Origin: Escherichia phage vB_EcoS_SCS31
DNA: 46,054 bases
Sequence record: ON081052
Direction: 5' to 3' (one strand)
The notes beneath the pieces were generated by a model that worked only from the letters and a program-made list of their open reading frames with translations, made no database searches and had not been told where the DNA came from. A program made the translations under genes and the position numbers. Below, in pieces: positions 9,398 to 46,054 of the stretch. Numbering within the stretch: position 1 is the stretch's first letter; each line of letters starts with the position of its first letter.

Positions 9398-9421
9398 AAC
9401 CCGCTTCGGCGGGTTTTTTAT
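9398..9421 (+). terminator. rho-independent terminator
   Basis: Hairpin ACCCGCTTCGGCGGGT + T-run. Confidence 0.6.
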
Positions 9422-9438
9422 TGCCTATCATCTCATCA

Positions 9439-9466
9439 TTGCGTGGTCTAAAAACTCGTGTATAAT
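9439..9466 (+). promoter_or_regulatory. sigma70-like promoter (TTGCGT-N16-TGTATAAT) upstream of capsid gene
   Basis: -35/-10 hexamers read directly. Confidence 0.45.
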
Positions 9467-9504
9467 GAACCCGTAGACACCTAAATGAAAAGGAACAATA
9501 AAGA

Positions 9505-10449
9505 ATGGCCATTAAATTTGATGCAGAACAAGCAAAAATCACCGCTCACCTCGAGCAAATGGGCGTAGAGAAAGCTGATGCCGCTGGTATCTGGACCGTT
9601 AAGCAGCTTACGGCTACTCTGAATCGCGCTTACGAAAAAGAATATGCGGACAACTCCGTTGTTAATATCTTCCCTGTAACCAATGAAATTCCTGGTCACG
9701 CGAAGTATTTCGAATATCCAGAATTTGATGGCGTTGGTATTGCTCAGATTATCGCTGATTACTCTGACGACCTGCCGCTGGTTGATGCTTTCATGACCGA
9801 GAAACAAGGCAAAGTTTTCCGTTTCGGTAACGCATTCCTGATTTCTACCGATGAAATTAAAGCTGGCGCCGCAACTGGTCAGTCTCTGTCAACTCGCAAA
9901 CAGGCTCTGGCTTTCGAAGCGCACGACAACCTGCTGGATAAACTGGTTTGGTCTGGTTCCACTCCTCACGGTATCGTAAGCGTATTCGATCAGCCTAACA
10001 TCAACAACGTTGTTGCAACGCCAAGCTGGAGCGAGCCGCTTAACGCAATCAATGACGTAACCGCGATGATTGATGCAGTTGAGACTTCAACTCAGGGTAT
10101 CCATCATGTGACTGATATTCTGCTTCCGGCATCCTCTCGTCGAGTAATGCAGCGCCTGGTTCCGAACACAACCCTGAGCTATGGTGAGTTGTTCACTCGT
10201 AACAACCCTGGCCTGACTATTCGTTTCCTGCAGTTCCTGGATAACTACGATGGCGCAGGTGGTAAAGCCGCTCTGGCGTTTGAGAAAAACCCGCTGAACA
10301 TGTCTATCGAGATTCCAGAAGCTACAAATGTACTTCCTGGTCAACCGAAAGATTTGCACTTTAAGTACCCGGTAACTTCTAAAGCGACAGGTTTGATTGT
10401 TTATCGTCCTCTTACGATGGCTGTAATCAAAGGAATCACCTTCGCGTAA
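9505..10449 (+). CDS. major capsid protein (putative)
   Basis: 314-aa ORF with strong RBS, flanked by terminators (high-expression context); position in head module. Confidence 0.7.
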   Translation: MAIKFDAEQAKITAHLEQMGVEKADAAGIWTVKQLTATLNRAYEKEYADNSVVNIFPVTNEIPGHAKYFEYPEFDGVGIAQIIADYSDDLPLVDAFMTEKQGKVFRFGNAFLISTDEIKAGAATGQSLSTRKQALAFEAHDNLLDKLVWSGSTPHGIVSVFDQPNINNVVATPSWSEPLNAINDVTAMIDAVETSTQGIHHVTDILLPASSRRVMQRLVPNTTLSYGELFTRNNPGLTIRFLQFLDNYDGAGGKAALAFEKNPLNMSIEIPEATNVLPGQPKDLHFKYPVTSKATGLIVYRPLTMAVIKGITFA

Positions 10450-10454
10450 TAAAT

Positions 10455-10478
10455 CGCCCTCTTCGGAGGGCTTTTTTA
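10455..10478 (+). terminator. rho-independent terminator
   Basis: Hairpin GCCCTCTTCGGAGGGC + T-run. Confidence 0.6.
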
Positions 10479-10541
10479 CGTCTGTACCAAATGGATTTGT
10501 TCGGTTATAATCACTCAATCAGATAAACAAAGGAGAAAAAA

Positions 10542-10787
10542 ATGATTCGTTTAGAACATACAGGCGCTTGCCTTATCGTTTACAAAGGTGAGAAATATTT
10601 ACCTGGCGACGCTTTCGAGGTTGATGTAATTTGTGACGGTCTTAAGCGCTTAATCGCAGAGGGTAAACTCACCATTGAAGGTGATGCTAAAGCAACAAAA
10701 CAGATCGCGCAAGAAGTTGTTAGCAAGAAAAAGCGCAAAGAACCGAAAACCATCTCCGAAGCTGAGACTGGTAACGAGTACAAATAA
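10542..10787 (+). CDS. hypothetical structural protein (81 aa)
   Basis: ORF track; strong RBS AAGGAGAAA; between two terminators. Confidence 0.3.
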   Translation: MIRLEHTGACLIVYKGEKYLPGDAFEVDVICDGLKRLIAEGKLTIEGDAKATKQIAQEVVSKKKRKEPKTISEAETGNEYK

Positions 10788-10792
10788 TAAAC

Positions 10793-10815
10793 AGGGCGCT
10801 TCGGCGTCCTTTATT
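10793..10815 (+). terminator. weak terminator-like hairpin
   Basis: GGGCGCTTCGGCGTCC + TTTATT. Confidence 0.35.
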
Positions 10816-11230
10816 GTATGGAGGTAACATGAATGATGCAATTTTGGCGTTTATGCGCTCGCTTGTTCCGGCGCTCAAGGCGGTGGATGACGAATCAATT
10901 AATGTATGGATTGATTTGGCGCGCCTCTACGTATGTGAGAGTAAGTTTGGAGCAGATGATGACAATGCGCTCGGGCTTTATGCGCTACACCTGATGCTCG
11001 CTGATGGCGCATTTAAGGGAGAGAATGAAGGACTGGAAACATACAGCCGTAGAATGGCAAGTTATTCACTGAGCGGTGAATTCTCTATCACCTATGATAA
11101 CCAATCAGCAATCCAGGGTGATTTATCATCTTCCTCCTGGGGTCGTATGTACAAAGCACTACTCCGCAAGAAAGGTGGCGGCTTTGGATTGATTACTTCC
11201 GCTGGTGGCGGTGGGTGCGGTTGCCGATGA
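10814..11230 (+). CDS. head-tail connector protein (putative)
   Basis: Position between capsid and major tail genes. Confidence 0.3.
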   Translation: MYGGNMNDAILAFMRSLVPALKAVDDESINVWIDLARLYVCESKFGADDDNALGLYALHLMLADGAFKGENEGLETYSRRMASYSLSGEFSITYDNQSAIQGDLSSSSWGRMYKALLRKKGGGFGLITSAGGGGCGCR

Positions 11231-13091: not shown

Positions 13092-13098
13092 GACACAA

Positions 13099-13121
13099 AC
13101 CCTCTTCGGAGGGTTTTTTTA
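13099..13121 (+). terminator. rho-independent terminator
   Basis: Hairpin AACCCTCTTCGGAGGGTT + T7. Confidence 0.65.
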
Positions 13122-13124
13122 TTG

Positions 13125-13172
13125 ATAGCACTTTTTGCTAAAGAATTAATATCAATCTTCTGTATAGTTAAC
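13125..13172 (+). promoter_or_regulatory. phage promoter, palindromic motif class
   Basis: ATAGCACTTTTTGCTAAA ... TGTATAGTTAAC ... CATCGAAACGAAA. Confidence 0.5.
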
Positions 13173-13200
13173 TCATCGAAACGAAATGAGAGATTAAGAA

Positions 13201-13467
13201 ATGAATAGTAAGTTAGAAGTATTATCCGCACTTCGCGGCCCTATTTGTGTAGCTGCGCTGGTTGCCTTTTATGCAGCAGTTCAGATTATCAACCCAACAA
13301 GAGCGGAAACAGCAAACTCTGACGCGGCAAAATACAATTCGGTTTTCTCTGAGCACAAGGCAATCTGCGAGAAGGCTTCTGGTAGCAAGATTGATCAGGT
13401 TCTGAAGTATGGCAAGGAAATCTGCGTAGATATCGCGCACGACATTGCAAAAGAAAACACTAAGTAA
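13201..13467 (+). CDS. hypothetical moron protein with N-terminal hydrophobic/signal-like segment (88 aa)
   Basis: Own promoter copy; N-terminus ALVAFYAAVQIINPTRAETA hydrophobic; inserted between major tail and chaperone genes. Confidence 0.4.
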   Translation: MNSKLEVLSALRGPICVAALVAFYAAVQIINPTRAETANSDAAKYNSVFSEHKAICEKASGSKIDQVLKYGKEICVDIAHDIAKENTK

Positions 13468-14173: not shown

Positions 14174-17152
14174 ATGGCAACAAATGAATTAGCCGGAATC
14201 ACACTAGCCGTAGACGTATCGCAGGTAGACAGGGGTACGCAATCACTACAGAAGTTCAGACAGGCCAACCAACAGGCTGCTTCTGGGATTAGTGAGTTCG
14301 TCAATGCTGAGCAGGTAGCAAAGACCCAGGCCAGAGACACGGCTCGTGCACTGGCTGAACAGCAAGCATCTTTAGCTAAATTGCAAACGGCCATTGACCC
14401 AACTGCGGCAAAGTTCCGTAAGCTGCAAGACGCAGCTGTAGGACTGGACAAGGCTTTCGCGGCTGGAGTGGTTCCTGATGAGGAGTTCTTCCGGTTAGGT
14501 GAGGCACTTGAAACGCAGAACGCAAAACTTGCTCGTTCACGTGCTGCGCTAACTGAAGAGGGGAGGGCAGCTGCACAGGCTGCAAAGGATAAGGCAAAAG
14601 CAAAGGCTGAGGCGGATAGGTTTATCGCATCACTTGAGCGACAGGCTCAAGCAGCGACATTGACGCGAGAGGAGTACCTAAAGTTACAAGCGGCCCAGCT
14701 TGGCGTTAGTTCTCAGGCTGCACCCATAATTGACAGAATAGCCGACGCATCACAGAAGGCAAACACGCAGCTAATTGCTCAGAGCAAGGCTTTTCAGAAA
14801 TCAGGATTAAGCGCCGGGCAATACAAGAATGCCATATCTCAACTACCAGCGCAGATTACTGATATTGGCACGTCGCTTGCTGGCGGGATTCCGATTTGGC
14901 TTATTGCAATTCAGCAAGGTGGTCAAATTAAGGATGCTTTTGGTGGTATTGGCAACACCTTTAGATTCGCGCTTGCAGCCTTAAACCCATTCAATGTAGC
15001 TGTTGGTGTTTTGGGTGGGGCGCTTGTAGCTCTTGGTGTTGGTGCAGCTCAAGCTGAAAGTGAATTCAGAGCATTAAACTCTGCGATTGCATTCTCCAAC
15101 AATTCTACAATCGCATCAATCTCGCAGGTTAGAGAGTTGGTTAGCTCTGTTTCTGATGCTACAGGAGCCACTAGGGGGCTTGTAACTAGCATCGCAACAA
15201 GCCTTATTGAACAAGGAAACCTTACGCTAACGCAGATTGATAAGATTACTAAATCTACATCCAGATGGGCGCAGTTGACAGGTAAGGATGCGAAGGAGAT
15301 TACTGGTTACTATAATCAGATTGCGAGTGACCCAATACAGGGATTGGTTGATTTGGATAAGCGCTTTAACTTCCTCACTCAGGGGCAGTTGACGACAATT
15401 GAAAACCTTAGGAAGACAAAGGGAGAAGTTGAGGCTGTAACTGCTGCTATTGATATCTTTAGTAAGTCACAGGAAGCCAACCTTAACGACATTGCAGCTC
15501 AATTGACGCCGCTTGAATTGGCATGGAATGATTTAAGAAAGTACATTTCTGATATCTGGGATGCAATTAGTCGCAGAACGGTTGGGGCGCTGAACCTGTT
15601 TGTTGATGTAATCGCCGGAACGATTGAACAGATCAGAGTATTCATTAACCAGGGTGACGTGCTGATTGGTGAATTCGTAATTAGCGCAACCCAGGCATTG
15701 CAGAACATCCCTGGCCTTGATGGTGTTGGTGATGATGTTATCAAGGGTCAGCAGAAGATTATCGATGCTGCCAAGAAGCAAAACCTTGAGCTAGAGAAGT
15801 CTATCAAGGAGCGAGATGCCAGAATTAGAGAGGGAGAACTTGGTTACGTTACTCGCAGGGAAAATAAGAATACCAATGAGCAATCAGGGACTGATGAGGA
15901 ATTTGCAAAAAGGAAGAAGGCACTTCATGATGAACTTGACGCGATCAAGAAGAACAGGAAAGAGGAAAATGGGAGGGTTAAGGAGCAAAGGGATCTAACA
16001 ATAGGTTATGAATCTGGCGTGCTGGCACTTCAGGCTCAACTCAAGGTGCTTCAGGAAAACAAGGATATCGGCGTAGTAATAAGCAATGAGCGCAAGCAGT
16101 ATCTTCAGGAGGTTGCCAAATTCCAGATTCTTGAGCAAAGACAACGTGATGGCTCGATAAAAAAAGAGCAGGCAAGACTCCTCGTTGAAAAGGATAAGGT
16201 TCTTGAGTTAGCCAGACAGAAAGCTGAGTTAGGCGATCAGATTGCTTTGCAGGAACGTGCCAATAAGTTAGCTGAAGATAACCGCAAGAAGATTCTTCAG
16301 ATTAACAATGAGGCAAGTAACATCGACTTGGGCGCTGGGTTATCATCTCGTGAGCAGCAGAGACTTAAAGAGATACAGGCTCTCAAATCCAATCAGGAAA
16401 ACGCTGGTGGTTCTCTTGATGATGTAGATTTCCAGCAATTACTGGAAGCAAGAAAGCAATTCTACAAGGATGAGGATAATCTCAGAGCAAACTGGCAATC
16501 CGGCGTACCAATCACTCTTGCCGACTGGGCTGAGAAGCGCACGGACTGCATCCAGATCGCTGAAGATTTAACACAACCGTCATTTGAAGGCATTACCGAC
16601 CAGATTACAAACCTTGTAACCACTGGCGAAACAAACTTCAGGGAGTTTACTGTTAGCATACTGAAGCAGATTGCTAAGATTGCAACCCAACTTCTTATTG
16701 TTAAGGCTATTGAGTCTAGCTTAAGTAGCTTTGGCGGAACTGGAGGTAACGCTATTGGTTCAATTGCTTCAGGTCTTGGTTTCGCTGGTGGCGGTTACAC
16801 TGGTGATGGTGGAAAATATCAGCCAGCAGGAACAGTACACCGCGGTGAGTTTGTATTCACAAAAGAAGCGACTAGCAGAATCGGCGTGAAAAACCTTTAC
16901 GCGCTAATGAAGGGATACGCAAACGGCGGCGCTGTAGGTGGTCCATCTGGTTATGCAAATGGCGGTTTGGTTTCTGGTGGAACAGATGTTAATGTTAGCG
17001 GCATCACTGTTAACGTAAACTCTGGTGTAGGTAGCGATCCGGAACAAGCTAAAGCGTTGCAGAGCGGAGTCAAGGCTATCGTAGCCGAAGAGATCGCTCA
17101 GTCTTTCCAGCAGGGTGGCAGGGCGTATGCCTATTTGAGAGGTTTTAACTAA
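14174..17152 (+). CDS. tail tape measure protein
   Basis: 992 aa, long Ala/Gln/Lys-rich helical regions, Gly-rich C-terminus; follows chaperone genes. Confidence 0.85.
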   Translation: MATNELAGITLAVDVSQVDRGTQSLQKFRQANQQAASGISEFVNAEQVAKTQARDTARALAEQQASLAKLQTAIDPTAAKFRKLQDAAVGLDKAFAAGVVPDEEFFRLGEALETQNAKLARSRAALTEEGRAAAQAAKDKAKAKAEADRFIASLERQAQAATLTREEYLKLQAAQLGVSSQAAPIIDRIADASQKANTQLIAQSKAFQKSGLSAGQYKNAISQLPAQITDIGTSLAGGIPIWLIAIQQGGQIKDAFGGIGNTFRFALAALNPFNVAVGVLGGALVALGVGAAQAESEFRALNSAIAFSNNSTIASISQVRELVSSVSDATGATRGLVTSIATSLIEQGNLTLTQIDKITKSTSRWAQLTGKDAKEITGYYNQIASDPIQGLVDLDKRFNFLTQGQLTTIENLRKTKGEVEAVTAAIDIFSKSQEANLNDIAAQLTPLELAWNDLRKYISDIWDAISRRTVGALNLFVDVIAGTIEQIRVFINQGDVLIGEFVISATQALQNIPGLDGVGDDVIKGQQKIIDAAKKQNLELEKSIKERDARIREGELGYVTRRENKNTNEQSGTDEEFAKRKKALHDELDAIKKNRKEENGRVKEQRDLTIGYESGVLALQAQLKVLQENKDIGVVISNERKQYLQEVAKFQILEQRQRDGSIKKEQARLLVEKDKVLELARQKAELGDQIALQERANKLAEDNRKKILQINNEASNIDLGAGLSSREQQRLKEIQALKSNQENAGGSLDDVDFQQLLEARKQFYKDEDNLRANWQSGVPITLADWAEKRTDCIQIAEDLTQPSFEGITDQITNLVTTGETNFREFTVSILKQIAKIATQLLIVKAIESSLSSFGGTGGNAIGSIASGLGFAGGGYTGDGGKYQPAGTVHRGEFVFTKEATSRIGVKNLYALMKGYANGGAVGGPSGYANGGLVSGGTDVNVSGITVNVNSGVGSDPEQAKALQSGVKAIVAEEIAQSFQQGGRAYAYLRGFN

Positions 17153-17196
17153 TAGCACTAAATGGTAAAGCCAAAAGGATTTGGCTTGCTATAATC
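17151..17196 (+). promoter_or_regulatory. phage promoter, degenerate palindromic motif class (AATAGCACTAAATGGTAAAG ... TATAAT)
   Basis: Motif read directly upstream of HNH gene. Confidence 0.4.
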
Positions 17197-17223
17197 AACT
17201 CATTAAAAGCATGAGGTGATAAA

Positions 17224-17721
17224 ATGAACTGGAATGATATTTTTGAGTATAGAGATGGGGTTCTTTATTGGAAGATTTCAACAAGCAACAAATCAAGAAA
17301 AAAGATTGGTGATGTTGCGGGTAATCAAATGAATGATGGATACATAATGGTTCAGGCATTTGGCAAAAGAATGCTTGCTCATAGGGTTGTTTGGGAAATG
17401 CATAATGGCAGAATAACTAATGGCATGCATATAGACCATTTAAACCACATAAGGAATGACAACAGGATAGAAAACCTAAGACTGGTGTCAAGAACAGAAA
17501 ACAACAGGAATAAATCACTGTCAAAAGTAAACAAAACAGGTGTTTCAGGAGTTAGATTAAAAGATGGGCTATTTGAGGTTTCGATAGGTGGAGAAAAAAA
17601 CAAGACTTACATAGGAAGGTTCTACACACTGGATGAGGCTAGAGCAGCAAGGAAATGCGCAGAATTTGAACTTAATTACCACAATAATCATGGGGATTGC
17701 AATGGCGATAGACACATTTAA
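17224..17721 (+). CDS. HNH homing endonuclease
   Basis: HNH core HRVVWEMHNG...HIDHLNH...RIENLRLVSRTENNRNK; paralog of 39194-39688. Confidence 0.8.
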   Translation: MNWNDIFEYRDGVLYWKISTSNKSRKKIGDVAGNQMNDGYIMVQAFGKRMLAHRVVWEMHNGRITNGMHIDHLNHIRNDNRIENLRLVSRTENNRNKSLSKVNKTGVSGVRLKDGLFEVSIGGEKNKTYIGRFYTLDEARAARKCAEFELNYHNNHGDCNGDRHI

Positions 17722-18052: not shown

Positions 18053-18055
18053 ACT

Positions 18056-18077
18056 AGGCCCCTTAGGGGCTTTTTTA
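18056..18077 (+). terminator. rho-independent terminator
   Basis: AGGCCCCTTAGGGGCT + T6. Confidence 0.6.
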
Positions 18078-18089
18078 TTGGAGAACAAT

Positions 18090-18845
18090 ATGTTAAGTCC
18101 AAAGTTTGAAAATCAGTTACAAAGCCTTTTCCCTGGCGAGATTGTGACACTAATCCAGGTAGACGGAACATCGTTTGGCTCTAACGTTTATTCGTTCCAC
18201 AATGAGAACATTTCATACACACCTGAAGAAATCATGCTAGCCCAAATGAATGGCGAGCCACTACCAGAGAAAACCATCACCTTCCGTGGTGAAGAGTACG
18301 GCCCAAGACCATTTGGAATCTCTGGCATCAATATGACCTCTGACGGCAAGGCCAACAAAGTGACGCTAACAGTATCAAACGTAGACCAGCGCATTAGCGC
18401 ATTGATTCGCACTTACAATGGATTGGTCAAGGCTAAGGTTACTATCTGGATTACCACGCGTGATAACATTAATGAAGACGGAAGCATTGCTGATGGGGAC
18501 TATCGCCGATTCGTTTACTTCATTGAGCGACCAAAGCAAGTTGATTACAAAACCGCATCATTTGAGCTTAGTAGTCCGATGGATATGGATGGCATTTATA
18601 TTCCAGCGAGACTTGTTCAGTCCGTTTGCTATTGGTCGTCAAGGGGGTGGTATCGTAGCGGTAATGGTTGCGACTATGCTGGCAATCGTTATTTTGACAA
18701 GGATGACAATCCAGTGTCAGACCCTTCACTTGACTTCTGCGCCGGAACGGTAAATAGCTGTAAGATTAGGTTTGGTGAGAATAATCAGCTTTCATTTGGT
18801 GGGTGCGCAGCAGCGAGCCTTCAAGCTAAAGCTAATCAGAGTTAA
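18090..18845 (+). CDS. minor tail protein (lambda L-like, putative)
   Basis: Position; C-terminal cysteine cluster (CYWSS...C...C...C) consistent with Fe-S-binding gpL-like proteins; ATG 18090 with RBS GGAGA. Confidence 0.55.
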   Translation: MLSPKFENQLQSLFPGEIVTLIQVDGTSFGSNVYSFHNENISYTPEEIMLAQMNGEPLPEKTITFRGEEYGPRPFGISGINMTSDGKANKVTLTVSNVDQRISALIRTYNGLVKAKVTIWITTRDNINEDGSIADGDYRRFVYFIERPKQVDYKTASFELSSPMDMDGIYIPARLVQSVCYWSSRGWYRSGNGCDYAGNRYFDKDDNPVSDPSLDFCAGTVNSCKIRFGENNQLSFGGCAAASLQAKANQS

Positions 18846-18892
18846 ATAGCACGAATTGCTAAAGACGATTTAAAAAGATGGGGTATAGTTAC
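18846..18892 (+). promoter_or_regulatory. phage promoter, palindromic motif class
   Basis: ATAGCACGAATTGCTAAAG ... TATAGTTAC ... AATCGAAACGAGA. Confidence 0.5.
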
Positions 18893-18911
18893 CCAATCGA
18901 AACGAGAGGAG

Positions 18912-19274
18912 ATGAAAAAAATGTTCCAAATTAAATTTAACGGATACAAAAAAGACAAAGAAGAGTGCGCTGGTTTGTTTTTTGTTGGCCACAATTACCC
19001 CTGCAGTGTTGTTGACTCAAACAGATACTATCAGACGCAGGATGAGAATGGCAATATTGTAAAGTTTAAAAGTATTTTTCGTGATGCTTGTTACGACTTT
19101 TCAAGAATTGATACTCAGAGCAAGGTATTAGACGAGCATGATAACAAGATGAAATATCGAATGAATGGTGTTGATGTCACTAAGTCATTCTTTGATGATA
19201 AGCTACTGGAAGTTGAGATGCTTAAATCAAGAGATGTTTCAGTATTTATAGATTTTGAGGTTTATTTTGAATAA
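18912..19274 (+). CDS. hypothetical moron protein (120 aa)
   Basis: Own promoter copy; inserted between L-like and K-like tail genes. Confidence 0.4.
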   Translation: MKKMFQIKFNGYKKDKEECAGLFFVGHNYPCSVVDSNRYYQTQDENGNIVKFKSIFRDACYDFSRIDTQSKVLDEHDNKMKYRMNGVDVTKSFFDDKLLEVEMLKSRDVSVFIDFEVYFE

Positions 19275-19332
19275 ACAAAATTAGTGTTAAACTAGGTCAA
19301 TCGAAAGGTTGGCCTTTTTTATTGGAGATAAA

Positions 19333-20091
19333 ATGTTAACACCAAAAGTTAAACTGCAAATCTTCCAGCACGCAAAAGATGTTTACCCTCATGAGTGCTG
19401 TGGAGTTGTTACGCAGAAGGGTCGCGCTCAGAAATACCACAGAATCAAGAACGCCAGCAAAGACCCTGAAAATGAGTTTATCCTTGATTCAAATGAGTAT
19501 GCAGATTTTCTCTTTGAGTTGGCTCACAATGAATCTATTGTTTACGTAGTTCACTCCCACACAGGTGATGGAGCCACAACAAGGCCAAGCCCTGCGGATA
19601 TTTGCAGCTGCAATGAGTGCGAGATTCCTTACGTTATTGTAAGCATACCAGAGGGAGATATGAGAATCCTTGAACCATCAACCATGCCGCTGATTGGGAG
19701 ACCTTGGGGGCTTGGTAGCTTTGATTGCTGGGAGCTGGTTATGTCGTTTCACAAGAAATACGGAGTCAAACTGAATGACTACCGAGTTAATTACCCGTGG
19801 TGGGAGAAACGGTACAATGAAAATATCTATGACGATAATTGGATTAATGAAGGATTTGAGGTAGTAAAAACTTCAGATATTCCGATTGGCTCAATGATTA
19901 TGATGCAGGTCCAGAGTGAAGTCACAAACCACGCCGGAATCTACATTGGCAACAACAGATTCATTCATCACCTTTATGGTAAAATGAGTTCCGTTGATAT
20001 CTACTCCGATTACTGGCGCGAGCGCACTGTGCGAATAGTTCGCCATAAGGATTTACCAGAGGATGTAAGTTATGACCAAGAAACTGATTGA
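19333..20091 (+). CDS. tail tip protein (lambda K-like; MPN/JAB + NlpC/P60-like motifs)
   Basis: HECCGVV ... HSH motif resembling JAB/MPN; position; ATG 19333 with RBS GGAGA (track TTG start rejected). Confidence 0.6.
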   Translation: MLTPKVKLQIFQHAKDVYPHECCGVVTQKGRAQKYHRIKNASKDPENEFILDSNEYADFLFELAHNESIVYVVHSHTGDGATTRPSPADICSCNECEIPYVIVSIPEGDMRILEPSTMPLIGRPWGLGSFDCWELVMSFHKKYGVKLNDYRVNYPWWEKRYNENIYDDNWINEGFEVVKTSDIPIGSMIMMQVQSEVTNHAGIYIGNNRFIHHLYGKMSSVDIYSDYWRERTVRIVRHKDLPEDVSYDQETD

Positions 20092-24115: not shown

Positions 24116-24145
24116 TAAAGCCCCTGAATAGGGGCTTTTCTTTTA
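24116..24145. terminator. bidirectional terminator between convergent genes
   Basis: AAAGCCCCTGAATAGGGGCTTTTCTTTT. Confidence 0.6.
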
Positions 24146-25105
24146 GTACATGTTTGGTATGTATGGAACTGCCATTGATATGTTTGTATCTAAATGGAAA
24201 TGTGCGCCAGTCCGTGTTGAATAGTTTCCAATTACACTACCAAACCCAGACCTGACAGATCCATTAGACATTACGACCCCTTTGTATCTAAGGTTGTTAT
24301 ACCCGCCAGTTACTCGAGTCGTAGCTCCAGTCCTGAGTATCGGGAAGTATCCGCCACCTATCGACTGATATCCATTGCTTATTTGTATAAATCCACTAAG
24401 TACGAATGGTCGCCTAACGCTTGAAAAAACAATCTGACCAGAGCTATTTGACATTGTTAGTCCTGGTCCGGCTGGTGGGGGTTCATTTCTGAATATCACC
24501 AGCTGAACATAAGTACTTGCCGAAACATCATCTGTACCTCCGTAGGTTATATCCCTGCACCATATTGTTGATCCATCTGATTCAAGTGATACGTTTGGAT
24601 TATCCCACTTGCCGAATGGTATGCCGCTAACTGGTAGCGATGCCGCCCCGTTAACCTGTATGCCTCCAACCCATGCTGCTGACATTAGTCTCGAGTTGCT
24701 TGATATAGCAAGGAAATCAGTTGAGTTCTCAACGAGTATCCCTGGGCTTGATGAAGGTGATGCTGGTAGAATTTCAAAACAATTACCCGCAAAGTCAATT
24801 ATTCGACCATTGGCACCATTGAAGTTACTAAGTGTTATCCTGCCAACTCCGTCATTAACCTTTTGGAATCCGTTCATGTAATAAACTTCAGGTATAACAT
24901 CGTAAGCATCAACGTGGACTGCCTTCGTTGGTAGGCAGAAAGCCGTAGAGCCAGGAGACATTGTCAATCCAAAATCCCACGAACTTGCTGGGGTTGAAAG
25001 TCCATTGGTATTTATTGATCCAGTCACAGCAGGTGCCCTTAATCCTGCCGTTATTTCCATCGCTGGTCTTCCGTCATTGAGGTCAATCAATATACCCTGC
25101 GGCAT
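24143..25105 (-). CDS. beta-rich Gly/Ser/Asn-rich protein, possible receptor-binding/tail-associated protein (320 aa)
   Basis: ATG 25105 with RBS AAGGAG, start overlaps lipoprotein stop (TAATG coupling); composition only. Confidence 0.4.
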   Translation of the reverse strand: MPQGILIDLNDGRPAMEITAGLRAPAVTGSINTNGLSTPASSWDFGLTMSPGSTAFCLPTKAVHVDAYDVIPEVYYMNGFQKVNDGVGRITLSNFNGANGRIIDFAGNCFEILPASPSSSPGILVENSTDFLAISSNSRLMSAAWVGGIQVNGAASLPVSGIPFGKWDNPNVSLESDGSTIWCRDITYGGTDDVSASTYVQLVIFRNEPPPAGPGLTMSNSSGQIVFSSVRRPFVLSGFIQISNGYQSIGGGYFPILRTGATTRVTGGYNNLRYKGVVMSNGSVRSGFGSVIGNYSTRTGAHFHLDTNISMAVPYIPNMY

Positions 25106-25356
25106 TATTTCCACTCCTTGCTGCCATGATCTGCAATAGAGCCACCGTAACCGCCGCCAGCCTTGCTTTCAATTCCGGCGTAGCGAACATCAACCTCACC
25201 AGCCGGAACAACTACGCCACCTTTCCATTTAGCTACGCACACACCATTTGCTTGTGTTGCACACCAACCATCCGGGCGAGGACCAGATGAGCAACCTACC
25301 ATCATGATTGCTGCTGCGGCGATGATTGAAAGTTTGATTAATTTAGTCATTTTCAT
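25105..25356 (-). CDS. outer-membrane lipoprotein, Cor/Llp-like superinfection-exclusion candidate
   Basis: N-terminus [25 protein letters not shown]: signal peptide plus lipobox Cys; small size; adjacent to tail fibre region. Confidence 0.5.
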
Positions 25357-25384: not shown

Positions 25385-25436
25385 TGGAGTAATCATATCT
25401 TAACTGTTAGGTTTGTCTTTAGCTATTCGTGCTATT
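25385..25436 (-). promoter_or_regulatory. phage promoter, palindromic motif class (minus strand)
   Basis: Reverse complement reads AATAGCACGAATAGCTAAAG ... TATGATTAC ... CATCAAAACGAAAC. Confidence 0.45.
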
Positions 25437-32096: not shown

Positions 32097-32116
32097 AATA
32101 GCACGAATTGCTAAGT
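32097..32116. promoter_or_regulatory. palindromic motif copy (AAATAGCACGAATTGCTAAG), orientation ambiguous
   Basis: Lies between primase terminator and tailspike start on minus strand. Confidence 0.4.
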
Positions 32117-33143: not shown

Positions 33144-33650
33144 TCAAATCGTGCTTTTTTTCTCTGCTTCTCTCTTTTTCTTATTCTCTTCTTTAATCTT
33201 ACGCCATGATCTGGCAGGCGGCTTTGTTGCTAACTCCTCTTTCTTAACAACTCTAAGCATTTCTCGACGGTCACAACGCAATGTTAAAGGCTTACCATTA
33301 CTATCAAATCGAAGGTCTGGACGAATGAAGCTAGCTCGATAACCCTCGCCTGTACGCTTGTACTTACCGTGTAATTTCTGCGCACCTTTAGCTGAAATCA
33401 TTCCGCGTTTACACCATTCAGAAACTACTGCATGTGTCACATTAGCGGCTTTTGCTAGCTTCGATTTACCACCATAAAAATCAAGAACAATCTCTAGCCG
33501 CGCGCGTAGCCCGGCTCTTACTTCATCTTTTAAAACATAGTAGCCTGAAGGTCGTTTGCGTTCTTTCTTGTCTTCGGTGCGATGTGTTCCGTTATTACCG
33601 TTTAATGTTCGCTTGTCAACTGCACCAGTTGATGCCGCAATTCTCGTCAT
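33144..33650 (-). CDS. HTH DNA-binding protein (Cro/YdaS-like, putative regulator)
   Basis: Segment GGKSKLAKAANVTHAVVSEWCKRGMISAKGAQKL resembles a helix-turn-helix; basic Lys/Arg-rich C-terminus. Confidence 0.4.
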   Translation of the reverse strand: MTRIAASTGAVDKRTLNGNNGTHRTEDKKERKRPSGYYVLKDEVRAGLRARLEIVLDFYGGKSKLAKAANVTHAVVSEWCKRGMISAKGAQKLHGKYKRTGEGYRASFIRPDLRFDSNGKPLTLRCDRREMLRVVKKEELATKPPARSWRKIKEENKKKREAEKKSTI

Positions 33651-33750
33651 TATCAATCTCCAATAGCATTTTTTGTTAAAAGCCATTCTGATTTGATGGT
33701 AGTATTGTACTCAATTAAACGCTACAAGACAATTTTATAGGAATTTAGAT

Positions 33751-35746: not shown

Positions 35747-36166
35747 ATGAAGATTACAGATAAAGAAGATTACATTGAGTTTTACCCGGGTGCTGTAAAA
35801 TCATGTCCAAAGGAGGATGACGAACAAATCTTTTGCTCTGATTGGGTTAAGTACCATTATCCGCAGATTGTTTACTGGCACACGATTAATGAAAATAAGA
35901 AGACCATAGGGCAAGCAAGAAAAGACCAGGCGAAAGGACTCCTTAAGGGCGTATCAGACTGCTTATTCCTGATACCTGAATCAATGCGAGGCAAATACCC
36001 TTTTGGAGCCATAGAGCTAAAGAGGGCAGGAAAAACTCAAGCAAGCCCTGTCAGCGATGAACAAAAGGTTTTCTTAAAAAGCGTAAGGGAATCAGGCGGT
36101 TTCTCTGCTGTAGCCTACGGTCGCGAAGGTTTTCTTGCAGCATTCAAAGAAATGATTTCAAAATAG
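35747..36166 (+). CDS. VRR-NUC-like nuclease (putative)
   Basis: SDCLFLIPE...GAIELKRAGK resembles D...E-x-K nuclease motif; stop overlaps promoter copy. Confidence 0.45.
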   Translation: MKITDKEDYIEFYPGAVKSCPKEDDEQIFCSDWVKYHYPQIVYWHTINENKKTIGQARKDQAKGLLKGVSDCLFLIPESMRGKYPFGAIELKRAGKTQASPVSDEQKVFLKSVRESGGFSAVAYGREGFLAAFKEMISK

Positions 36167-36209
36167 CACGAATTGCTAAAGAAGATTTTAAAGGATGGGG
36201 TATAGTTAC
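36163..36209 (+). promoter_or_regulatory. phage promoter, palindromic motif class
   Basis: AATAGCACGAATTGCTAAAG ... TATAGTTAC ... CATCGAAACGAAACG. Confidence 0.5.
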
Positions 36210-36242
36210 TCCATCGAAACGAAACGCAGAGAGAGAAACAAA

Positions 36243-39193: not shown

Positions 39194-39688
39194 ATGAATT
39201 GGAATGATTTTCTTGAGTATAGAGATGGCAGGCTTTACTGGACTGACCCGCATTCAACAAAACTCAAGCCAGGTGATGAGGCTGGTAGCAGGCATCATAG
39301 GGGTTATTGGTACATTCGCAGATATGACAAAACAATGTCAAGGCACCGAATCGTATGGGAGATGCACAACGGACCAATACCAGAAGGCATGGAGATAGAT
39401 CATATAAATCACGTCCCTGGAGATGACAGGATTGAAAACCTAAGAATGGTCACAAGAAGGCAAAACAATCAAAACAAAAAATTAGATGGAAGAAATACAA
39501 GCGGACACGTCGGGGTAAGCTGGAGCAAGAAGACAAACAAATGGAGAGCAATGATAGGCATAAAGGGAGAGGACGGAAAGAGGAAAACTTTATACGTTTA
39601 CTATGGTGATTCTTTCGATGACGCAGTGTCAGCAAGAAAGAGAGCTGAAGTTGAGTACTCATTTCACGAAAATCACGGAAGAAGCTAG
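39194..39688 (+). CDS. HNH homing endonuclease
   Basis: HRIVWEMHNGPIPEGMEIDHINH ... RIENLRMVTRRQNNQNK; N-terminus nearly identical to 17224 product. Confidence 0.8.
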   Translation: MNWNDFLEYRDGRLYWTDPHSTKLKPGDEAGSRHHRGYWYIRRYDKTMSRHRIVWEMHNGPIPEGMEIDHINHVPGDDRIENLRMVTRRQNNQNKKLDGRNTSGHVGVSWSKKTNKWRAMIGIKGEDGKRKTLYVYYGDSFDDAVSARKRAEVEYSFHENHGRS

Positions 39689-39689
39689 A

Positions 39690-39738
39690 AATAGCACTTT
39701 TTGCCTAAAGCATGCCGTATAAATGCGGCATAATTACC
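39690..39738 (+). promoter_or_regulatory. phage promoter, palindromic motif class
   Basis: AATAGCACTTTTTGCCTAAAG, hairpin GCCGTATAAATGCGGC, CATAATTAC, CATCGAAACGAGA. Confidence 0.45.
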
Positions 39739-39764
39739 ACATCGAAACGAGATGAGGAATTGTA

Positions 39765-40238
39765 ATGATTTACGTATTTGATATCGATGGAACTATAGCT
39801 AATAATGAACATAGAAGTCACCTCTTGCCATACAGTGACCTTCACTTGACTTCAAGTTGGAAGGATTACAATAAAGCCTGTTCTGGAGACTCACCAATAA
39901 TCCCAATGATAAACATGATGAACAAACTTGCGGAATTATGTCAGGTTTACATTATGACCTCCAGAAGTGATGAAGTTGAATGGAGAACACTTGAGTGGCT
40001 TCAGGATAATGAGGTTGAGTATGATTCGATATACATGAGAAGTCGACATGACAACCGAAAAGATTACAAAATAAAAGAGGAATGGCTTAATGAAATCAGT
40101 GGTGGCGATAAAAGCAATGTGGTTATTTTTGAAGATAACCCACAAGTAATTAAGCACCTAAGGAGTTGCGGATACACCGTTATGGCCGTATGTGAATATG
40201 AAGAACTACCTAAAGATTGCGAATCTCACGGAGAATGA
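39765..40238 (+). CDS. HAD-superfamily phosphatase / nucleotidase (putative)
   Basis: N-terminal FDIDGTIA (DxDGT) motif typical of HAD phosphatases. Confidence 0.5.
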   Translation: MIYVFDIDGTIANNEHRSHLLPYSDLHLTSSWKDYNKACSGDSPIIPMINMMNKLAELCQVYIMTSRSDEVEWRTLEWLQDNEVEYDSIYMRSRHDNRKDYKIKEEWLNEISGGDKSNVVIFEDNPQVIKHLRSCGYTVMAVCEYEELPKDCESHGE

Positions 40239-40795
40239 AAATGACTAAATTATTTATCCTTAATGGCCCCGCTGGAGTTGGTAAGGATACTATAGCGGAT
40301 ATCATGGTTGAGACTGGTGTCGCCAAAGAAAAGGTATCATTCAAGTCACCAATGTTTAACGTTGCTAGAGGTATTCTTTCAATAGATGAATTCGATTGGT
40401 TTATTGAAAACTACAACAATCGCGACGAGAAGGAGAAACATCAGAAAATTCTAGGTGGAAAAAGCATTCGAGAGTTCATGATCTGGATTAGCGAGTCTGT
40501 AATGAAGCCAGTCTTTGGTGATGATGTTTTTGGTAAAAGGCTCGCCCAGTCACTTAGTGATGGTTGCTACATTTGCGCTGACGGTGGATTTGCTAGCGAG
40601 ATTAAGCCACTGATCGACGCTGGTGTTGAGGTCACGTTAATCAGATTGCATAGGGCGGGGCACACATTTGATGGCGATAGTCGCTCATACATTCACGGGG
40701 TGTGCGCAAGAGAAATTGATGTTCGTGTTGTTGGTGGTGATATTGATGGAACATCAGCATTGGTAAGGCACGTAATAAATAGCACTAATTGCTAA
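40235..40795 (+). CDS. P-loop kinase, dNMP-kinase-like (putative)
   Basis: Walker A GPAGVGKDT near N-terminus; stop lies in promoter copy. Confidence 0.55.
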   Translation: MKMTKLFILNGPAGVGKDTIADIMVETGVAKEKVSFKSPMFNVARGILSIDEFDWFIENYNNRDEKEKHQKILGGKSIREFMIWISESVMKPVFGDDVFGKRLAQSLSDGCYICADGGFASEIKPLIDAGVEVTLIRLHRAGHTFDGDSRSYIHGVCAREIDVRVVGGDIDGTSALVRHVINSTNC

Positions 40796-40826
40796 AGATA
40801 ATAATAAAAACTGAGTTATCATTAAC
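40778..40826 (+). promoter_or_regulatory. phage promoter, palindromic motif class
   Basis: AATAGCACTAATTGCTAAAG ... GTTATCATTAAC ... CATCGAAACGAGA. Confidence 0.45.
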
Positions 40827-40863
40827 ACATCGAAACGAGATGAAACAAACGAGGAAACACAAG

Positions 40864-41040
40864 ATGACTAAAATGATTTATTGCACCAAGAACAACTCCA
40901 AGACGCTTCCATTTACAGTTAACCAGCCGTACAATGCAGAGTATCAGGGTGACGGATATTACAAGATTTACGGAGACGATATGACGTGGATTTTAGCACC
41001 GATTGATGGTTCGCTTGTTGAATTTATTATCGCAGAATAG
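40864..41040 (+). CDS. hypothetical small protein
   Basis: ATG 40864 after conserved leader. Confidence 0.3.
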   Translation: MTKMIYCTKNNSKTLPFTVNQPYNAEYQGDGYYKIYGDDMTWILAPIDGSLVEFIIAE

Positions 41041-41169
41041 CGCATCTAAAACATAGCTTTACAAGTGGGGGCCTTTTGGCTCCCTTTTTTTTGCTTCTTT
41101 TCCGAACAGGGCTACTGTATCATGTTTACACTAACTTAAACATTGACAAATAGACAAATGGAGGATCAC

Positions 41170-41385
41170 ATGAGGGAAGTAATCAACGCCGCTACGGCGT
41201 CAACTGGAGGGGCAGCGGTAACTGGAGCGGCAACTGGTCAGATGACTATAGCAATAATCAGCCTTATCGCTTTAATCATTTTTGGTGCGTGGGGTGCTTA
41301 CTGGAAGTTTAAGGATAGCCAGGCGATTCGGCGCGCTCTTGAATCAGGAGACTTAAAAACAGCAATCAAGATAAGGAGTAAGTAA
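41170..41385 (+). CDS. holin (putative)
   Basis: Small protein with hydrophobic segment MTIAIISLIALIIFGAWGAYW and charged C-terminus; directly upstream of endolysin. Confidence 0.45.
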   Translation: MREVINAATASTGGAAVTGAATGQMTIAIISLIALIIFGAWGAYWKFKDSQAIRRALESGDLKTAIKIRSK

Positions 41386-41871
41386 ATGAAGCAGAAGCTG
41401 CTAATTAGCGCGGCTACGGCTACGGCAATATACATCGCAGCACCGCTTATTGAGCTCGTAGAGGGTGTGGAAAACAAGCCTTACATGGACATTGCTGGAA
41501 TCCCTACTGTTTGCTCTGGCGTTACTGGCCCTGACGTTGTTTGGGGTAAGACCTACAGCAACAGGGAATGCCGGAACTTACTGGAGAAGCACATTCAGAT
41601 TCATGCCAGGCATGTTCAGAATGCAGTTACCTACCCAATCGCACCTCAGACAAGAGCGGCTTTAATCAGCTTTAGCTACAACGTTGGTGGAAATGCGATG
41701 AGGAATTCAACGGCAGTTCGACTTATTAATCAGGGTAAAGTTGAGCAGGGTTGCAATGCTCTCGGGATGTGGAATAAGGCTCGGGTTAACGGAAAGCTAA
41801 AGGTAGTTAAAGGCCTGGTTAACAGGAGAAACGAGGAGATTAAGTTATGCTTAAGTGGATTGCAGCGTTAG
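41386..41871 (+). CDS. SAR endolysin (lysozyme-like)
   Basis: N-terminal weakly hydrophobic signal-anchor-release-like segment, then E...D...T lysozyme-like region (ELVEGVENKPYMDIAGIPTVCSGVTG). Confidence 0.7.
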   Translation: MKQKLLISAATATAIYIAAPLIELVEGVENKPYMDIAGIPTVCSGVTGPDVVWGKTYSNRECRNLLEKHIQIHARHVQNAVTYPIAPQTRAALISFSYNVGGNAMRNSTAVRLINQGKVEQGCNALGMWNKARVNGKLKVVKGLVNRRNEEIKLCLSGLQR

Positions 41872-42236
41872 TAATGTGCATGGCTTTATCTGGATGCTCA
41901 GCAACTGAAGTCCTGACCGGATTGATTGGAAGTAAACCAGATGTCACTGCGCAGGTTGGAGCGGCTAACAATAAAGTCGGCGTTGGTGCTTCCGTTAGTA
42001 GCGACTCCAGCAATTCCAGTGAAGCCACTGTAAGGGATTCTAAGGTTGGGAGCCTGGATAGCTCAAGCAGAAAAAAGACCTCCGACAATTCAATTAAGGC
42101 ATCAACAATCACTGCCGAAAAGATTGAGATTACAAACAATGAATCATCATCACTACCGTGGATTGGTACTGGCGTTATGTTCTGCCTGGTTCTTATTCTT
42201 CTGGCAATTATCTTAAGACGTAAAAAAGCCCCTTAA
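41847..42236 (+). CDS. unimolecular spanin (T1 gp11-like)
   Basis: N-terminal lipoprotein signal with lipobox LSGC and a C-terminal transmembrane segment (VMFCLVLILLAIIL) in one 129-aa protein. Confidence 0.6.
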   Translation: MLKWIAALVMCMALSGCSATEVLTGLIGSKPDVTAQVGAANNKVGVGASVSSDSSNSSEATVRDSKVGSLDSSSRKKTSDNSIKASTITAEKIEITNNESSSLPWIGTGVMFCLVLILLAIILRRKKAP

Positions 42237-42252
42237 TAGGGGCTATATTTTT
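42222..42252. terminator. bidirectional terminator between lysis genes and minus-strand genes
   Basis: AAAAAAGCCCCTTAATAGGGGCTATATTTTT. Confidence 0.55.
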
Positions 42253-42586
42253 AGCTAAATAACTCGTCGTCAGTCATGTTTCCTATGTTCATCATTTCCT
42301 TTATGTACTTACTATCATAACCGTTCAGTGCTTCGAAGTTAAACTCAAAAGGCCTCTTCAAACTCCCTCTACTAACAAACTCACCACACTTACCATCAAT
42401 ATATCCTGAGCTTAACATCTTTGCGCAGAACTCCTTTGAAGCTGCACTGCAAAACTTCCGATGTGGCAAACCTGCCGCCTTGCTAAACCTCTCTGAATCT
42501 TTGTGCTTGTATATGAATCGCGCCAAATGCTGGCGCGTAAAATAACTGTAGGACTCGCAAAATCTGTATAAATCAAGAAGAAACAT
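42251..42586 (-). CDS. hypothetical protein (111 aa)
   Basis: ORF track; downstream of 42590-44173 on minus strand. Confidence 0.3.
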   Translation of the reverse strand: MFLLDLYRFCESYSYFTRQHLARFIYKHKDSERFSKAAGLPHRKFCSAASKEFCAKMLSSGYIDGKCGEFVSRGSLKRPFEFNFEALNGYDSKYIKEMMNIGNMTDDELFS

Positions 42587-42589
42587 AAA

Positions 42590-44173
42590 TCACCCCATTA
42601 CACGTGGATTAACATAAACACGGTCATCAATCATGCAAACGTAGTTACGTTCTTCAAGCATTGGGATTAAGTGGTCCTTAATCTTCGTCATTACACCGGC
42701 CTGAGATTCGAATGGCTTAACCTTTCTTGCTGACTCATACAGCGCGCGAAGGCTAACAAAACCTTTACCAGCCTTACCCATTTTCAAAGCCAGGTCGATA
42801 AGTTTATTCATCTCTGCGTTATCACCAGCATGACCTGCGGCATTAGCAGAAGATAAATATGTTTTGCTTAACTCGTTAAACATTAATACCGCCTCCTGCA
42901 TGGTTTCTAATTCAATCTCACGAGACTTTTTAGGATTGCCACCTTCTTCAGATACCCAATTGCGAACAGTATGAATAACCGAAGCTATACGGATTGCCTG
43001 CTTGTCAAATTTACCAAGTGCGCCTCGTAACATAGTGTGACTGTATTTACCTCCATCACGTAAGTGCGGTTCCATATCCTGGCGAGCACGGTTTAGATAA
43101 CGCATGGCTGAATCACTAATAGTTAGCTTAACATCCACCTCACTCATGATGTTGTGAATAAGTTTAAAGTAAGTCGCCTTAAGCGCTCCATCAATAGGTT
43201 CATAAGTTGAGCGACCTTCATCATCAACAAAAACACGTTCACCTAAGAATGATTTCTCACGAACAAGCAAAAAACGCTCTGATACACCGATACCGCGAGC
43301 ACCAGCATTCATGATTGCGTTGATTGTCTCATCTTGTGCAATTACAGAGATGCAACCCAGCGCAGTAAAAGACATGTTGTTTTCAGCGTTAGCACGAGCA
43401 ATAGAAACATCGCCAGAGTCCCATGCCTTAAGAACCAATTCACTGTTTGTCTTTTTGCTCCCGTCGCCATAAGTCATGCCTAATAATGAGTTTACAGAAG
43501 TTGCTTCATCAGATATTACAGCAAAGTTACCTTGACGGAAGTTAATTCGCGCAAGACCTTCTGGAGTTGTATCAGATACCGGAAAAACAACATCGCATAA
43601 CTTCTCTAACTTCTCCTCAAGATTCTCTTTATCCTCAAATAATCTCGCCATTTCAGAAGGTGATTGCTCCTGCTTCATTTCTTTAGCGAGAGAAGATAGT
43701 TTTGCCATAATCTTTTTTCGTTCACGCTTACGTTCCTCGTTGATTCTGTCTCGTTCAGCAATCATTGGCGCAGTTGCCAGGCTGTTAATTGCTGATTTAC
43801 CAGTTGAAGGAGGTTGGCTTGTAACAACATAAAGCGCGGTTGGCTGAGTTGTTCCGTGATACTCAACGGTAAAACGACCCAGCATTGCAGAAGATACGCA
43901 GCCTAAAAAGTGCATATAGGCAGAAGATGATGGGAACTGTACTGATCGGGCGATGTTGGCTGACAGCTTGCCTACCACATCAAAATCATTCCCGAGGCTT
44001 ATTACAGGATATTTATCATTGCAATTCTCAACCTCTACTGGGTCCTTCCAGAATGACTGAGCATATCGCATACCGTTCGCTTTAATTGCCACACGAAGCG
44101 GGGAGATGCCTTGCTGCTGCGCAATAGCCATAACCTGGTCAACACTCAACTTACTGGATTCGAACTCAAACAT
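42590..44173 (-). CDS. P-loop NTPase-like large early protein, function unresolved
   Basis: Walker A-like PPSTGKS and Walker B-like AVISDEATS; ATG 44173 with RBS GGAG. Confidence 0.4.
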   Translation of the reverse strand: MFEFESSKLSVDQVMAIAQQQGISPLRVAIKANGMRYAQSFWKDPVEVENCNDKYPVISLGNDFDVVGKLSANIARSVQFPSSSAYMHFLGCVSSAMLGRFTVEYHGTTQPTALYVVTSQPPSTGKSAINSLATAPMIAERDRINEERKRERKKIMAKLSSLAKEMKQEQSPSEMARLFEDKENLEEKLEKLCDVVFPVSDTTPEGLARINFRQGNFAVISDEATSVNSLLGMTYGDGSKKTNSELVLKAWDSGDVSIARANAENNMSFTALGCISVIAQDETINAIMNAGARGIGVSERFLLVREKSFLGERVFVDDEGRSTYEPIDGALKATYFKLIHNIMSEVDVKLTISDSAMRYLNRARQDMEPHLRDGGKYSHTMLRGALGKFDKQAIRIASVIHTVRNWVSEEGGNPKKSREIELETMQEAVLMFNELSKTYLSSANAAGHAGDNAEMNKLIDLALKMGKAGKGFVSLRALYESARKVKPFESQAGVMTKIKDHLIPMLEERNYVCMIDDRVYVNPRVMG

Positions 44174-44244
44174 CTTAATGCTCCATCTCGTTAATGTGCG
44201 GGTATTATATAACACCCGCTCAGTATGTCTTTATCTTTTAGTGC

Positions 44245-44598: not shown

Positions 44599-44777
44599 TT
44601 TAAGCCCTCTCTTTCGTTTTCCACATAAATTTGTTTGGTACTGATTTGCGAACGATTCGCACAACAATCTTATCTGTCTTTTGCACTAAGCCGTAAATCT
44701 TGCCGTCAAGTGATGAGCGGTATACTGCCTCTTCCATCTCGTCGTAAAAGTTGTCGAACATTTCTCATCTCCCGTCT

Positions 44778-46015: not shown

Positions 46016-46054
46016 ATCAGATTACCCAGAACCACTGGTATCATAAAGGCATTA

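Follow-up and report, generated by a model that had tools for sequence, protein, structure and literature searches.

The stretch of DNA that we have analysed, called the window hereafter, spans 46,054 nt, as does the genome of Escherichia phage vB_EcoS_ACG-M12 (NC_019404.1; Drexlerviridae, Braunvirinae, Guelphvirus), with which it is colinear. In its tail operon, the gene for the homologue of minor tail protein L (18090-18845, + strand; PF05100, E = 5.5e-47; gp46 in ACG-M12) ends with a TAA stop codon that directly adjoins a small cassette, beyond which lies the gene for the homologue of tail protein K (19333-20091, + strand), with Prok-JAB and NlpC/P60 domains. The cassette extends from 18846 to 19327, filling precisely the interval that separates the L stop codon from the K ribosome-binding site. 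On the + strand it contains, in this order: the 19-nt upstream element ATAGCACGAATTGCTAAAG (18846-18864), which contains the inverted repeat TAGCA-N5-TGCTA; a gap of exactly 19 nt; the -10-like hexamer TATAGT (18884-18889); a conserved leader, TTACCCAATCGAAACGA, with the Shine-Dalgarno sequence GAGAGGAG at 18904-18911 (leader region 18890-18920), the same leader being present after most copies of the motif; an ORF of the gp45 family (18921-19274), whose product of 117 aa (13.9 kDa, pI 5.2) has 100% protein identity to gp45 of ACG-M12; and a 3' module (19288-19327) comprising TAAACTAG, the terminator hairpin AGGTCAATC-GAAA-GGTTGGCCT (19294-19315) and a T-run/ATTGGAG stretch with TTTTTATTGGAG. 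The GC content of the cassette is 33.8%, about 10 points below its neighbours, versus 42-48% in the M, L, K, I and J genes and 43.5% in the whole genome.

The first-pass annotation of this region had described a moron with its own promoter at 18846-19300, lying between L-like and K-like tail tip genes. The left edge stands, but the right edge has to be moved to about 19327; since the terminator hairpin and TTTTTATTGGAG belong to the cassette, the unit is longer than originally claimed. The flanking genes are indeed true homologues of the lambda-type M, L, K, I and J genes, having PF05939, PF05100, NlpC/P60 plus JAB, Lambda_tail_I and gpJ domains. The reading frame that had been reported as a 120-aa ORF at 18912-19274 does exist, but its conserved ATG is at 18921, not 18912, giving the 117-aa product. 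We place the start there because the homologues in 40 of 40 database clusters begin with MF(Y)IKF, extended to MF(Y)IKFNGYKK, corresponding to the ATG at 18921, and because this codon sits 9 nt past the Shine-Dalgarno sequence; the upstream in-frame ATG is missing in SU57, phiEB49 and BEK6.

The 5' part of the cassette had been called a perfect promoter copy. This is accurate insofar as ATAGCACGAATTGCTAAAG is a perfect copy of a promoter-like element that is repeated in this phage family, with an exact twin at 36163 of the window, but it does not hold for a canonical sigma-70 promoter. Copies with up to three mismatches number 13 in the window, versus 0.02 expected by chance, and a looser pattern retrieves 15 oriented copies of the element. 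Considering the window together with Rtp, T1 and CEB_EC3a, there are 60 oriented copies, 43 of which have TAnnnT at the fixed offset of 19 nt, and many viral contigs of 45-53 kb also possess multiple copies. Copies of the element start where the gene before them stops, either at its stop codon or overlapping it, and are followed by the same layout: exactly 19 nt, TATAGT or TATAAT, TTAC, a leader with ATCGAAACGA, a Shine-Dalgarno sequence and, in the same orientation, a gene with its ATG. The copy preceding gp45 has TATAGTTAC in common with those at 2116, 5966 and 36163.

A canonical sigma-70 promoter is rejected on spacing, as TTGCTA and TATAGT are 22 nt apart and there is no -35 hexamer at 16-18 nt; a sigma-70 consensus scan of the window did not call the gp45 site. 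Because of these two results, promoter activity and its timing are features that we infer. The BPROM annotation of SU57 marks exactly TTGCTA...TATAGT as a promoter. Our literature searches for the motif sequence and for transcription start sites of Drexlerviridae returned nothing relevant, and the published descriptions of ACG-M12, Rogue1, AHP24 and SU57 do not describe the motif. Assuming that transcription starts 7 nt past the hexamer, the centre of the dyad TAGCA-N5-TGCTA would lie at approximately -42, where activators overlapping the -35 region typically bind. The location of the dyad near -42, combined with the missing -35 hexamer, might point to dependence of the element on an activator. 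We have rejected an analogy with the MotA box of T4, which TGCTAAA might evoke by its resemblance to TGCTTTA, on account of its geometry, since the distance from this box to the -10 hexamer is about 22 nt instead of the roughly 12 nt of T4. Given that the + strand copies of T1 are located in the non-structural arms of its genome, the cassette would be expressed on the schedule of non-structural genes rather than with the tail operon.

A variant of the motif, ATAGCATTTTTTGTTAAAAG (33663-33681), is found in the divergent region between gp29 (33144-33686, minus strand) and the helicase gene. The gp29 protein is a conserved Cro/CI-like HTH protein, below Pfam thresholds, and its divergent control region has a copy of the motif at the same position in four of four genomes (window, Rtp, T1 and CEB_EC3a). 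Owing to the motif copy in its own divergent region, gp29 is a candidate binder of the dyad TAGCA-N5-TG(C/T)TA and possibly the activator of the element, which we present as a lead only. Additional copies lie outside the common layout. An orphan copy at 32098-32116 of the window, which has no -10-like hexamer at the fixed offset, is situated between the primase terminator and the start of a minus-strand tail-fibre gene, about 10 nt from the ribosome-binding site of the latter; the same arrangement is conserved in Rtp (33763), T1 (34903) and CEB_EC3a (32079), and this copy may be an operator rather than a promoter. On the minus strand of T1 (L209), two copies at 15085 and 18849 are antisense within the structural block, one close to the major head gene and the other past the major tail gene. 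Many copies of the element, moreover, have a short hairpin in or beside the 19-nt spacer, for example GCCA-CGGA-TGGC or GGGTA-TAGT-TACCC (18884-18897 in the gp45 region is among such sites), while the spacer of the HNH cassettes has the hairpin GGATAGC...GCTATCC; GGATGG is recurrent immediately ahead of the -10-like hexamer.

At the other end of the cassette, a 9-bp hairpin with a T-run constitutes a predicted terminator (19294-19321), whose RNA fold has an energy of -13.7 kcal/mol with z = -3.2. The stem of this hairpin is preserved through changes from G.U to A.U in SU57, phiEB49 and BEK6. The hairpin and T-run continue into TTTTTATTGGAG, which supplies the ribosome-binding site for K and has no more than three occurrences in the window (6409, 18072 and 19316). 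The complete 3' module, consisting of TAAACTAG, the hairpin and TTTTTTATTGGAG, is present exactly three times in the window: after gp63, after gp45 and at the M|L junction, where the module stands alone with no gene (18053-18083, + strand). The three junctions involved, TerL|portal, M|L and L|K, are those in which members of the gp45 family occur. In T1, terminators are present at TerL|portal and M|L and there is none at L|K, for which reason we consider that the cassette at L|K probably brought along its terminator from one of the other two sites.

The proposal that the cassette breaks the M-L-K-I-J gene order, having been acquired by insertion, is supported by several lines of evidence: L and K adjoin in relatives, the inserted segment is bracketed by 5' and 3' modules, its GC content is low, its presence is rare and its dS is low. 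In a comparison of synteny, L and K overlap in T1, are separated by 10 nt in CEB_EC3a, which belongs to the same genus, and have a gap of 12-19 nt in eight relatives from IMG/VR, as in TAA-GGGGAAATAA-ATG. The sole difference between filled and empty L|K junctions is the segment lying between the TAA of L and the ribosome-binding site of K, and the polymorphisms of presence and absence fall exactly on the borders of the modules. The junctions have neither target-site duplications nor terminal repeats, so a transposon-like insertion is rejected. The same junction is occupied by an HNH endonuclease cassette in Rtp (rtp40), JulesPiccard and three IMG/VR phages, and by a different insert in IME253; the HNH inserts at L|K open with the same motif (TCATAGCACTTATTGCTAAG...TATAAT).

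How common is the gene? Homologues of gp45 are present in 14 records, versus approximately 1,086 phage records that encode a homologue of L; in 814 of these, the identity is at least 60%. A gene universally present as a core tail component, which would contradict acquisition by insertion, is not what we have found. Even relatives in which L has 96-99% and K 92-96% protein identity have no such gene, and gp45 has no Pfam match, whereas its neighbours in the tail tip set (M, L, K, I and J) match PF05939, PF05100, JAB/NlpC and Lambda_tail_I. The whole family amounts to 40 clusters among 5.8 billion proteins, and a profile search retrieved 15 representatives among 1.84 billion.

A paralogous cassette, gp63, occupies the TerL|portal junction (5966-6420, + strand), with the same promoter module and 3' module as gp45. 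Direct BLASTP of gp45 versus gp63 yields a match of only 7 residues; their kinship emerged via distant family members and profile comparison, with an hhalign probability of 96.5% for the N-domain. The gp63 ORF (6039-6420) is split by a 1-nt frameshift at an A7 run around 6230: frame 0 encodes the N-domain and frame -1 the C-domain (KQFKYYING...IKFEVKFE), the join being CAAT-A7-GC (A-run at about 6228-6240). The counterpart in CEB_EC3a has A8 and encodes an intact protein of 110 aa, while the split is also seen in ACG-M12, ECH1 and phiEB49; it may reflect a sequencing error in the homopolymer, pseudogene status or -1 slippage on A AAA AAA G. Several phages retain two paralogues of the gp45 family. 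The tail operon of the window has, in addition, a second insertion 1.1 kb upstream of the gp45 cassette, namely an HNH endonuclease cassette (gp48; 17152-17721, + strand; PF13392, E = 2e-19) at the junction between the tape-measure gene and M, with the motif variant ATAGCACTAAATGGTAAAG...TATAAT ahead of it; this cassette is missing in SU57, CEB_EC3a and others.

Similar arrangements are scattered elsewhere in these genomes. A second HNH gene (39194-39688) lies behind a motif variant at 39122, and in Rtp and T1 the same element precedes HNH genes at junctions other than these. The interval 13097-13467, which follows the major tail protein, contains a terminator, a motif copy at 13125 and an 88-aa ORF (gp52) with a hydrophobic N-terminus; at this site Rtp has an unrelated predicted lipoprotein of 128 aa, rtp34 (MKAIIAIMATLLLAGC...). 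Downstream of J, the minus strand encodes a membrane protein labelled 'moron/host takeover' (phrog_1265) and a phage lipoprotein (PF24052) at 24143-25356, the gene for the latter being preceded by a motif copy at 25417-25435. From its position, we suspect that the PF24052 lipoprotein has a Cor-like role in superinfection exclusion, similar to that of T1 gene ST30.

With the same flanking modules, homologues of gp45 are found at L|K in ACG-M12, ECH1, SU57, phiEB49, BEK6, AugustePiccard and one metagenomic contig, at M|L in JulesPiccard, and at TerL|portal in Opt-79 and its relatives, Rtp (rtp22) and two metagenomic contigs; weak homologues are present also in coliphages of 137-145 kb. Between ACG-M12 and SU57, the values of dS are 0.88 for M, 0.90 for L, 0.54 for K and 0.76 for I, but 0.040 for gp45, approximately 20 times lower. 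Between ACG-M12 and phiEB49 they reach 1.6-4.2 in the flanking genes, where they are saturated, versus 0.51 in gp45. Because dS is so much lower in gp45 than in its flanks, the cassette was exchanged between phage lineages long after the divergence of their tail genes, indicating a recent horizontal transfer. The 5' modules are themselves mosaic. Among the resident copies in the window, the one most similar to that of gp45 is at 36163-36224 (+ strand), with 56 of 62 nt identical, and the Rtp equivalent of this copy has 57 of 62; for the BEK6 module the copy at TerL|portal is the nearest (55 of 62), and the SU57 module is a hybrid between copies of the 36163 type and of the TerL|portal type. 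Such mosaic copies suggest that recombination takes place between modules.

The gp45 protein matches the profile of phrog_14592 over its full length (E = 3.7e-41), while no match was found for the ORF or the region in Pfam, NCBIfam, PADLOC, PDB sequences and Rfam; in particular, the defence and anti-defence profiles of PADLOC gave no match to gp45 at E up to 1, and the search of PDB sequences none under E = 0.27. A first structure prediction, based on 26 close homologues, was unusable (pLDDT 54), whereas AlphaFold2 with 35 more diverse sequences reached a pLDDT of 85.9. In the predicted architecture, a disordered linker joins an SH3-like N-domain of five strands (residues 1-63) to a C-domain with beta-beta-alpha-beta topology (77-116). 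What the fold matches is a generic SH3-like barrel, without sequence similarity, and a BFVD structure search retrieved only members of the family and many uncharacterised phage ORFs of 60-68 aa. Reading the gp45 sequence we have seen no hydrophobic N-terminal or membrane-spanning stretch, hence the protein is taken as soluble. We have also considered a nuclease role for the beta-beta-alpha unit of the C-domain, as in HNH homing endonucleases, and rejected it: there is no match to PF13392 or other nucleases, and histidines occur only at variable positions of the alignment, leaving no invariant His.

Distant pairs of gp45 proteins show omega values of 0.2-0.5, with dS up to more than 1, from which we conclude that this is a real gene under purifying selection, the protein sequence of which matters. 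Since the transfer separating ACG-M12 from SU57, the omega of gp45 has been 1.5 versus 0.02-0.09 in the flanking genes, a value derived from only some 19 substitutions that does not exceed 1 significantly. In this pair the N-domain has 13 amino-acid changes versus 1 silent-only codon change, while the linker and C-domain together have 2 amino-acid changes versus 1 silent-only, all of these being small counts.

Taken as a whole, the evidence is best explained by considering the segment 18846-19327 as a self-contained moron in the sense of Hendrix, located between tail genes L and K of a virulent T1-like phage, an interpretation that we regard as likely and that the sequence comparisons support. 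The cassette would have spread in co-infections by homologous recombination, using as regions of homology either the conserved tail genes on both sides or the repeated modules at its 5' and 3' ends, a mechanism like that put forward for the PeSL cassettes of T4-like phages. Its 5' module would drive transcription on the schedule of the non-structural clusters, independently of the tail operon, and the hairpin would limit read-through into K. The product, in turn, would not be a tail building block but a soluble two-domain protein binding a host or phage protein in the phage-host conflict, for either counter-defence or host takeover, with the fast-changing SH3-like N-domain as its contact surface. 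A function as a host-interaction or counter-defence binder is favoured by the combination of rarity, promoter class, evolutionary rate and fold, but we advance it tentatively, judging its probability to be somewhat short of even.

Is the cassette native to the phage from which the window derives? Compared along its whole length with ACG-M12, the window has 3,058 substitutions, the majority at third codon positions in conserved genes, and yet no indel in the equal length of 46,054 nt. The substitutions leave 12 zero-difference blocks of at least 150 nt, with sizes of 264-6,405 nt, and the gp45 cassette lies entirely within one of these, the 735-nt block 18612-19346. The pattern looks like that of either an assembly guided by a reference or a mosaic recombinant of very recent origin. 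If the former applies, the block 18612-19346 and the other zero-difference blocks would be carried over from the ACG-M12 reference and the real phage might lack the cassette. In favour of this possibility, zero-difference blocks cover all four variable small cassettes (gp63, gp52, HNH and gp45), whereas the divergent blocks are about 10.5% away from every known phage in the collection compared and have natural-looking omega values (0.03-0.09 for the tail genes). Other zero-difference blocks, however, span conserved genes as well (1-3543, 7620-8540, 9313-10823 and 39650-46054), and a recent natural recombinant would produce an identical pattern. We consider a carry-over to be rather unlikely; in either case, the cassette is real in ACG-M12, ECH1, SU57, phiEB49, BEK6 and AugustePiccard.

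Two further explanations concern the function of gp45. It could be a dispensable virion protein, an accessory or decoration of the tail or head that is made with the structural genes and packed into particles; all known copies of the family lie within the structural module (TerL|portal, M|L or L|K), as would fit this role, and the family is labelled 'virion structural protein' in RefSeq and PHROGs and 'putative tail fiber protein' in the annotation of SU57. Yet these labels form a chain of similarity that could not be traced to evidence: the original record of phiEB49 says 'gp37' only, the paper on SU57 has no proteomics, and the publications on ACG-M12, Rogue1, AHP24 and SU57 contain no proteomics relevant to gp45. 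Published proteomics of four T1-like phages identified seven structural proteins, each of which was assigned a named function in the head or tail, and none was named as gp45-like. The absence of the gene from relatives with nearly identical L and K also speaks against a virion role, as do the element ahead of gp45, which otherwise precedes clusters of non-structural genes, and its omega of 0.2-1.5 versus 0.02-0.1 in tail genes. Consequently, we find the virion explanation improbable and the labels of the gp45 family probably wrong. Alternatively, the gene could be a purely selfish passenger of L|K, a hot spot for homing or recombination where its occupancy would block HNH cassettes targeting the junction. 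The alternation of empty, gp45 and HNH states at L|K, the same motif opening all inserts there and the presence of the second HNH cassette 1.1 kb upstream fit this possibility, but gp45 has no nuclease motif or family match, it is under purifying selection in distant pairs and several phages keep two paralogues of it. A mere passenger seems to us more improbable still, and we continue to favour a host-interaction or counter-defence binder over both.

Extending this preferred reading, we may speculate that ATAGCAC-N4-TG(C/T)TAA, 19 nt and TAnnnT define a non-canonical class of promoters common to the whole family of Drexlerviridae, which would depend on an activator, possibly gp29, and would serve also as a portable recombination module by which the structural operon gains and loses small genes. 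In that case, the gp45/gp63/rtp22 family would constitute a two-domain counter-defence factor, or the target of a defence sensor, with its SH3-like N-domain under diversifying selection. In such a comprehensive form the proposal is quite doubtful. Its separate elements have, nonetheless, implications of their own. The doubtful label of 'virion structural' or 'tail fiber' protein matters for annotating therapeutic T1-like phages, and the promoter-like element of fixed geometry that is common to T1-like phages, which we have not found described in the literature searched, renders the control of T1 transcription testable. At the L|K, M|L and TerL|portal hot spots, HNH endonucleases alternate with small genes that evolve fast; these junctions are a good hunting ground for counter-defence genes and provide safe sites for payload engineering.

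Comparison with known systems helps in placing the gp45 cassette. Regarding its product, Gp54 of Bas11 (PDB 9axb; PMC11578894) has 16% identity to gp45 in a structural alignment, with no detectable sequence similarity; it is a single domain of 64 aa with six strands, whereas gp45 has an extra C-domain, and the only known property of Gp54 is the triggering of CapRel (PMC11578894). Regarding its location, the cassette resembles the free-standing HNH cassettes of Drexlerviridae, such as rtp40 at L|K of Rtp and gp48 at the junction of the tape-measure gene with M in the window, in sharing the same junction, the 5' motif at the upstream stop codon and a sporadic distribution. It differs from them in lacking a nuclease signature, while the HNH cassettes have no terminator module and overlap the start of K. 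In its modular organization, the cassette recalls the PeSL (promoter-early stem-loop) cassettes of T4-like phages, in which small ORFs that are not essential are enclosed by short repeated modules, promoter and terminator, to which indels and replacements between close relatives map and whose recombination yields mini-circles (PMC2839356, PMC4122927). The gp45 cassette similarly has repeated 5' and 3' modules (15 plus 3 copies in the window), polymorphisms at their borders and mosaic copies. However, it belongs to a different phage family, its cassettes lie inside a late structural operon and not in hyperplastic early regions, and instead of a strong consensus sigma-70 early promoter it has the TAGCA-N5-TGCTA dyad, with a spacer of 22 nt between TTGCTA and TATAGT.

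A further parallel is with the morons of tailed phages, a concept of Hendrix and Juhala. As in morons, two genes that adjoin in relatives are separated by an additional gene, which is bracketed by a promoter-like element and a terminator, has a deviant composition and is distributed sporadically. Unlike morons, gp45 resides in a virulent phage, with no expression from a prophage and no lysogenic conversion, and its promoter-like element copies the phage family's own repeat instead of being a foreign sigma-70 promoter. Viewed in this context, the gp45 cassette is an ordinary but clean moron, annotated as a hypothetical ORF of a known phage, a single gene of little weight by itself; of broader interest are the promoter-like element found throughout the family and the cassette hot spots.
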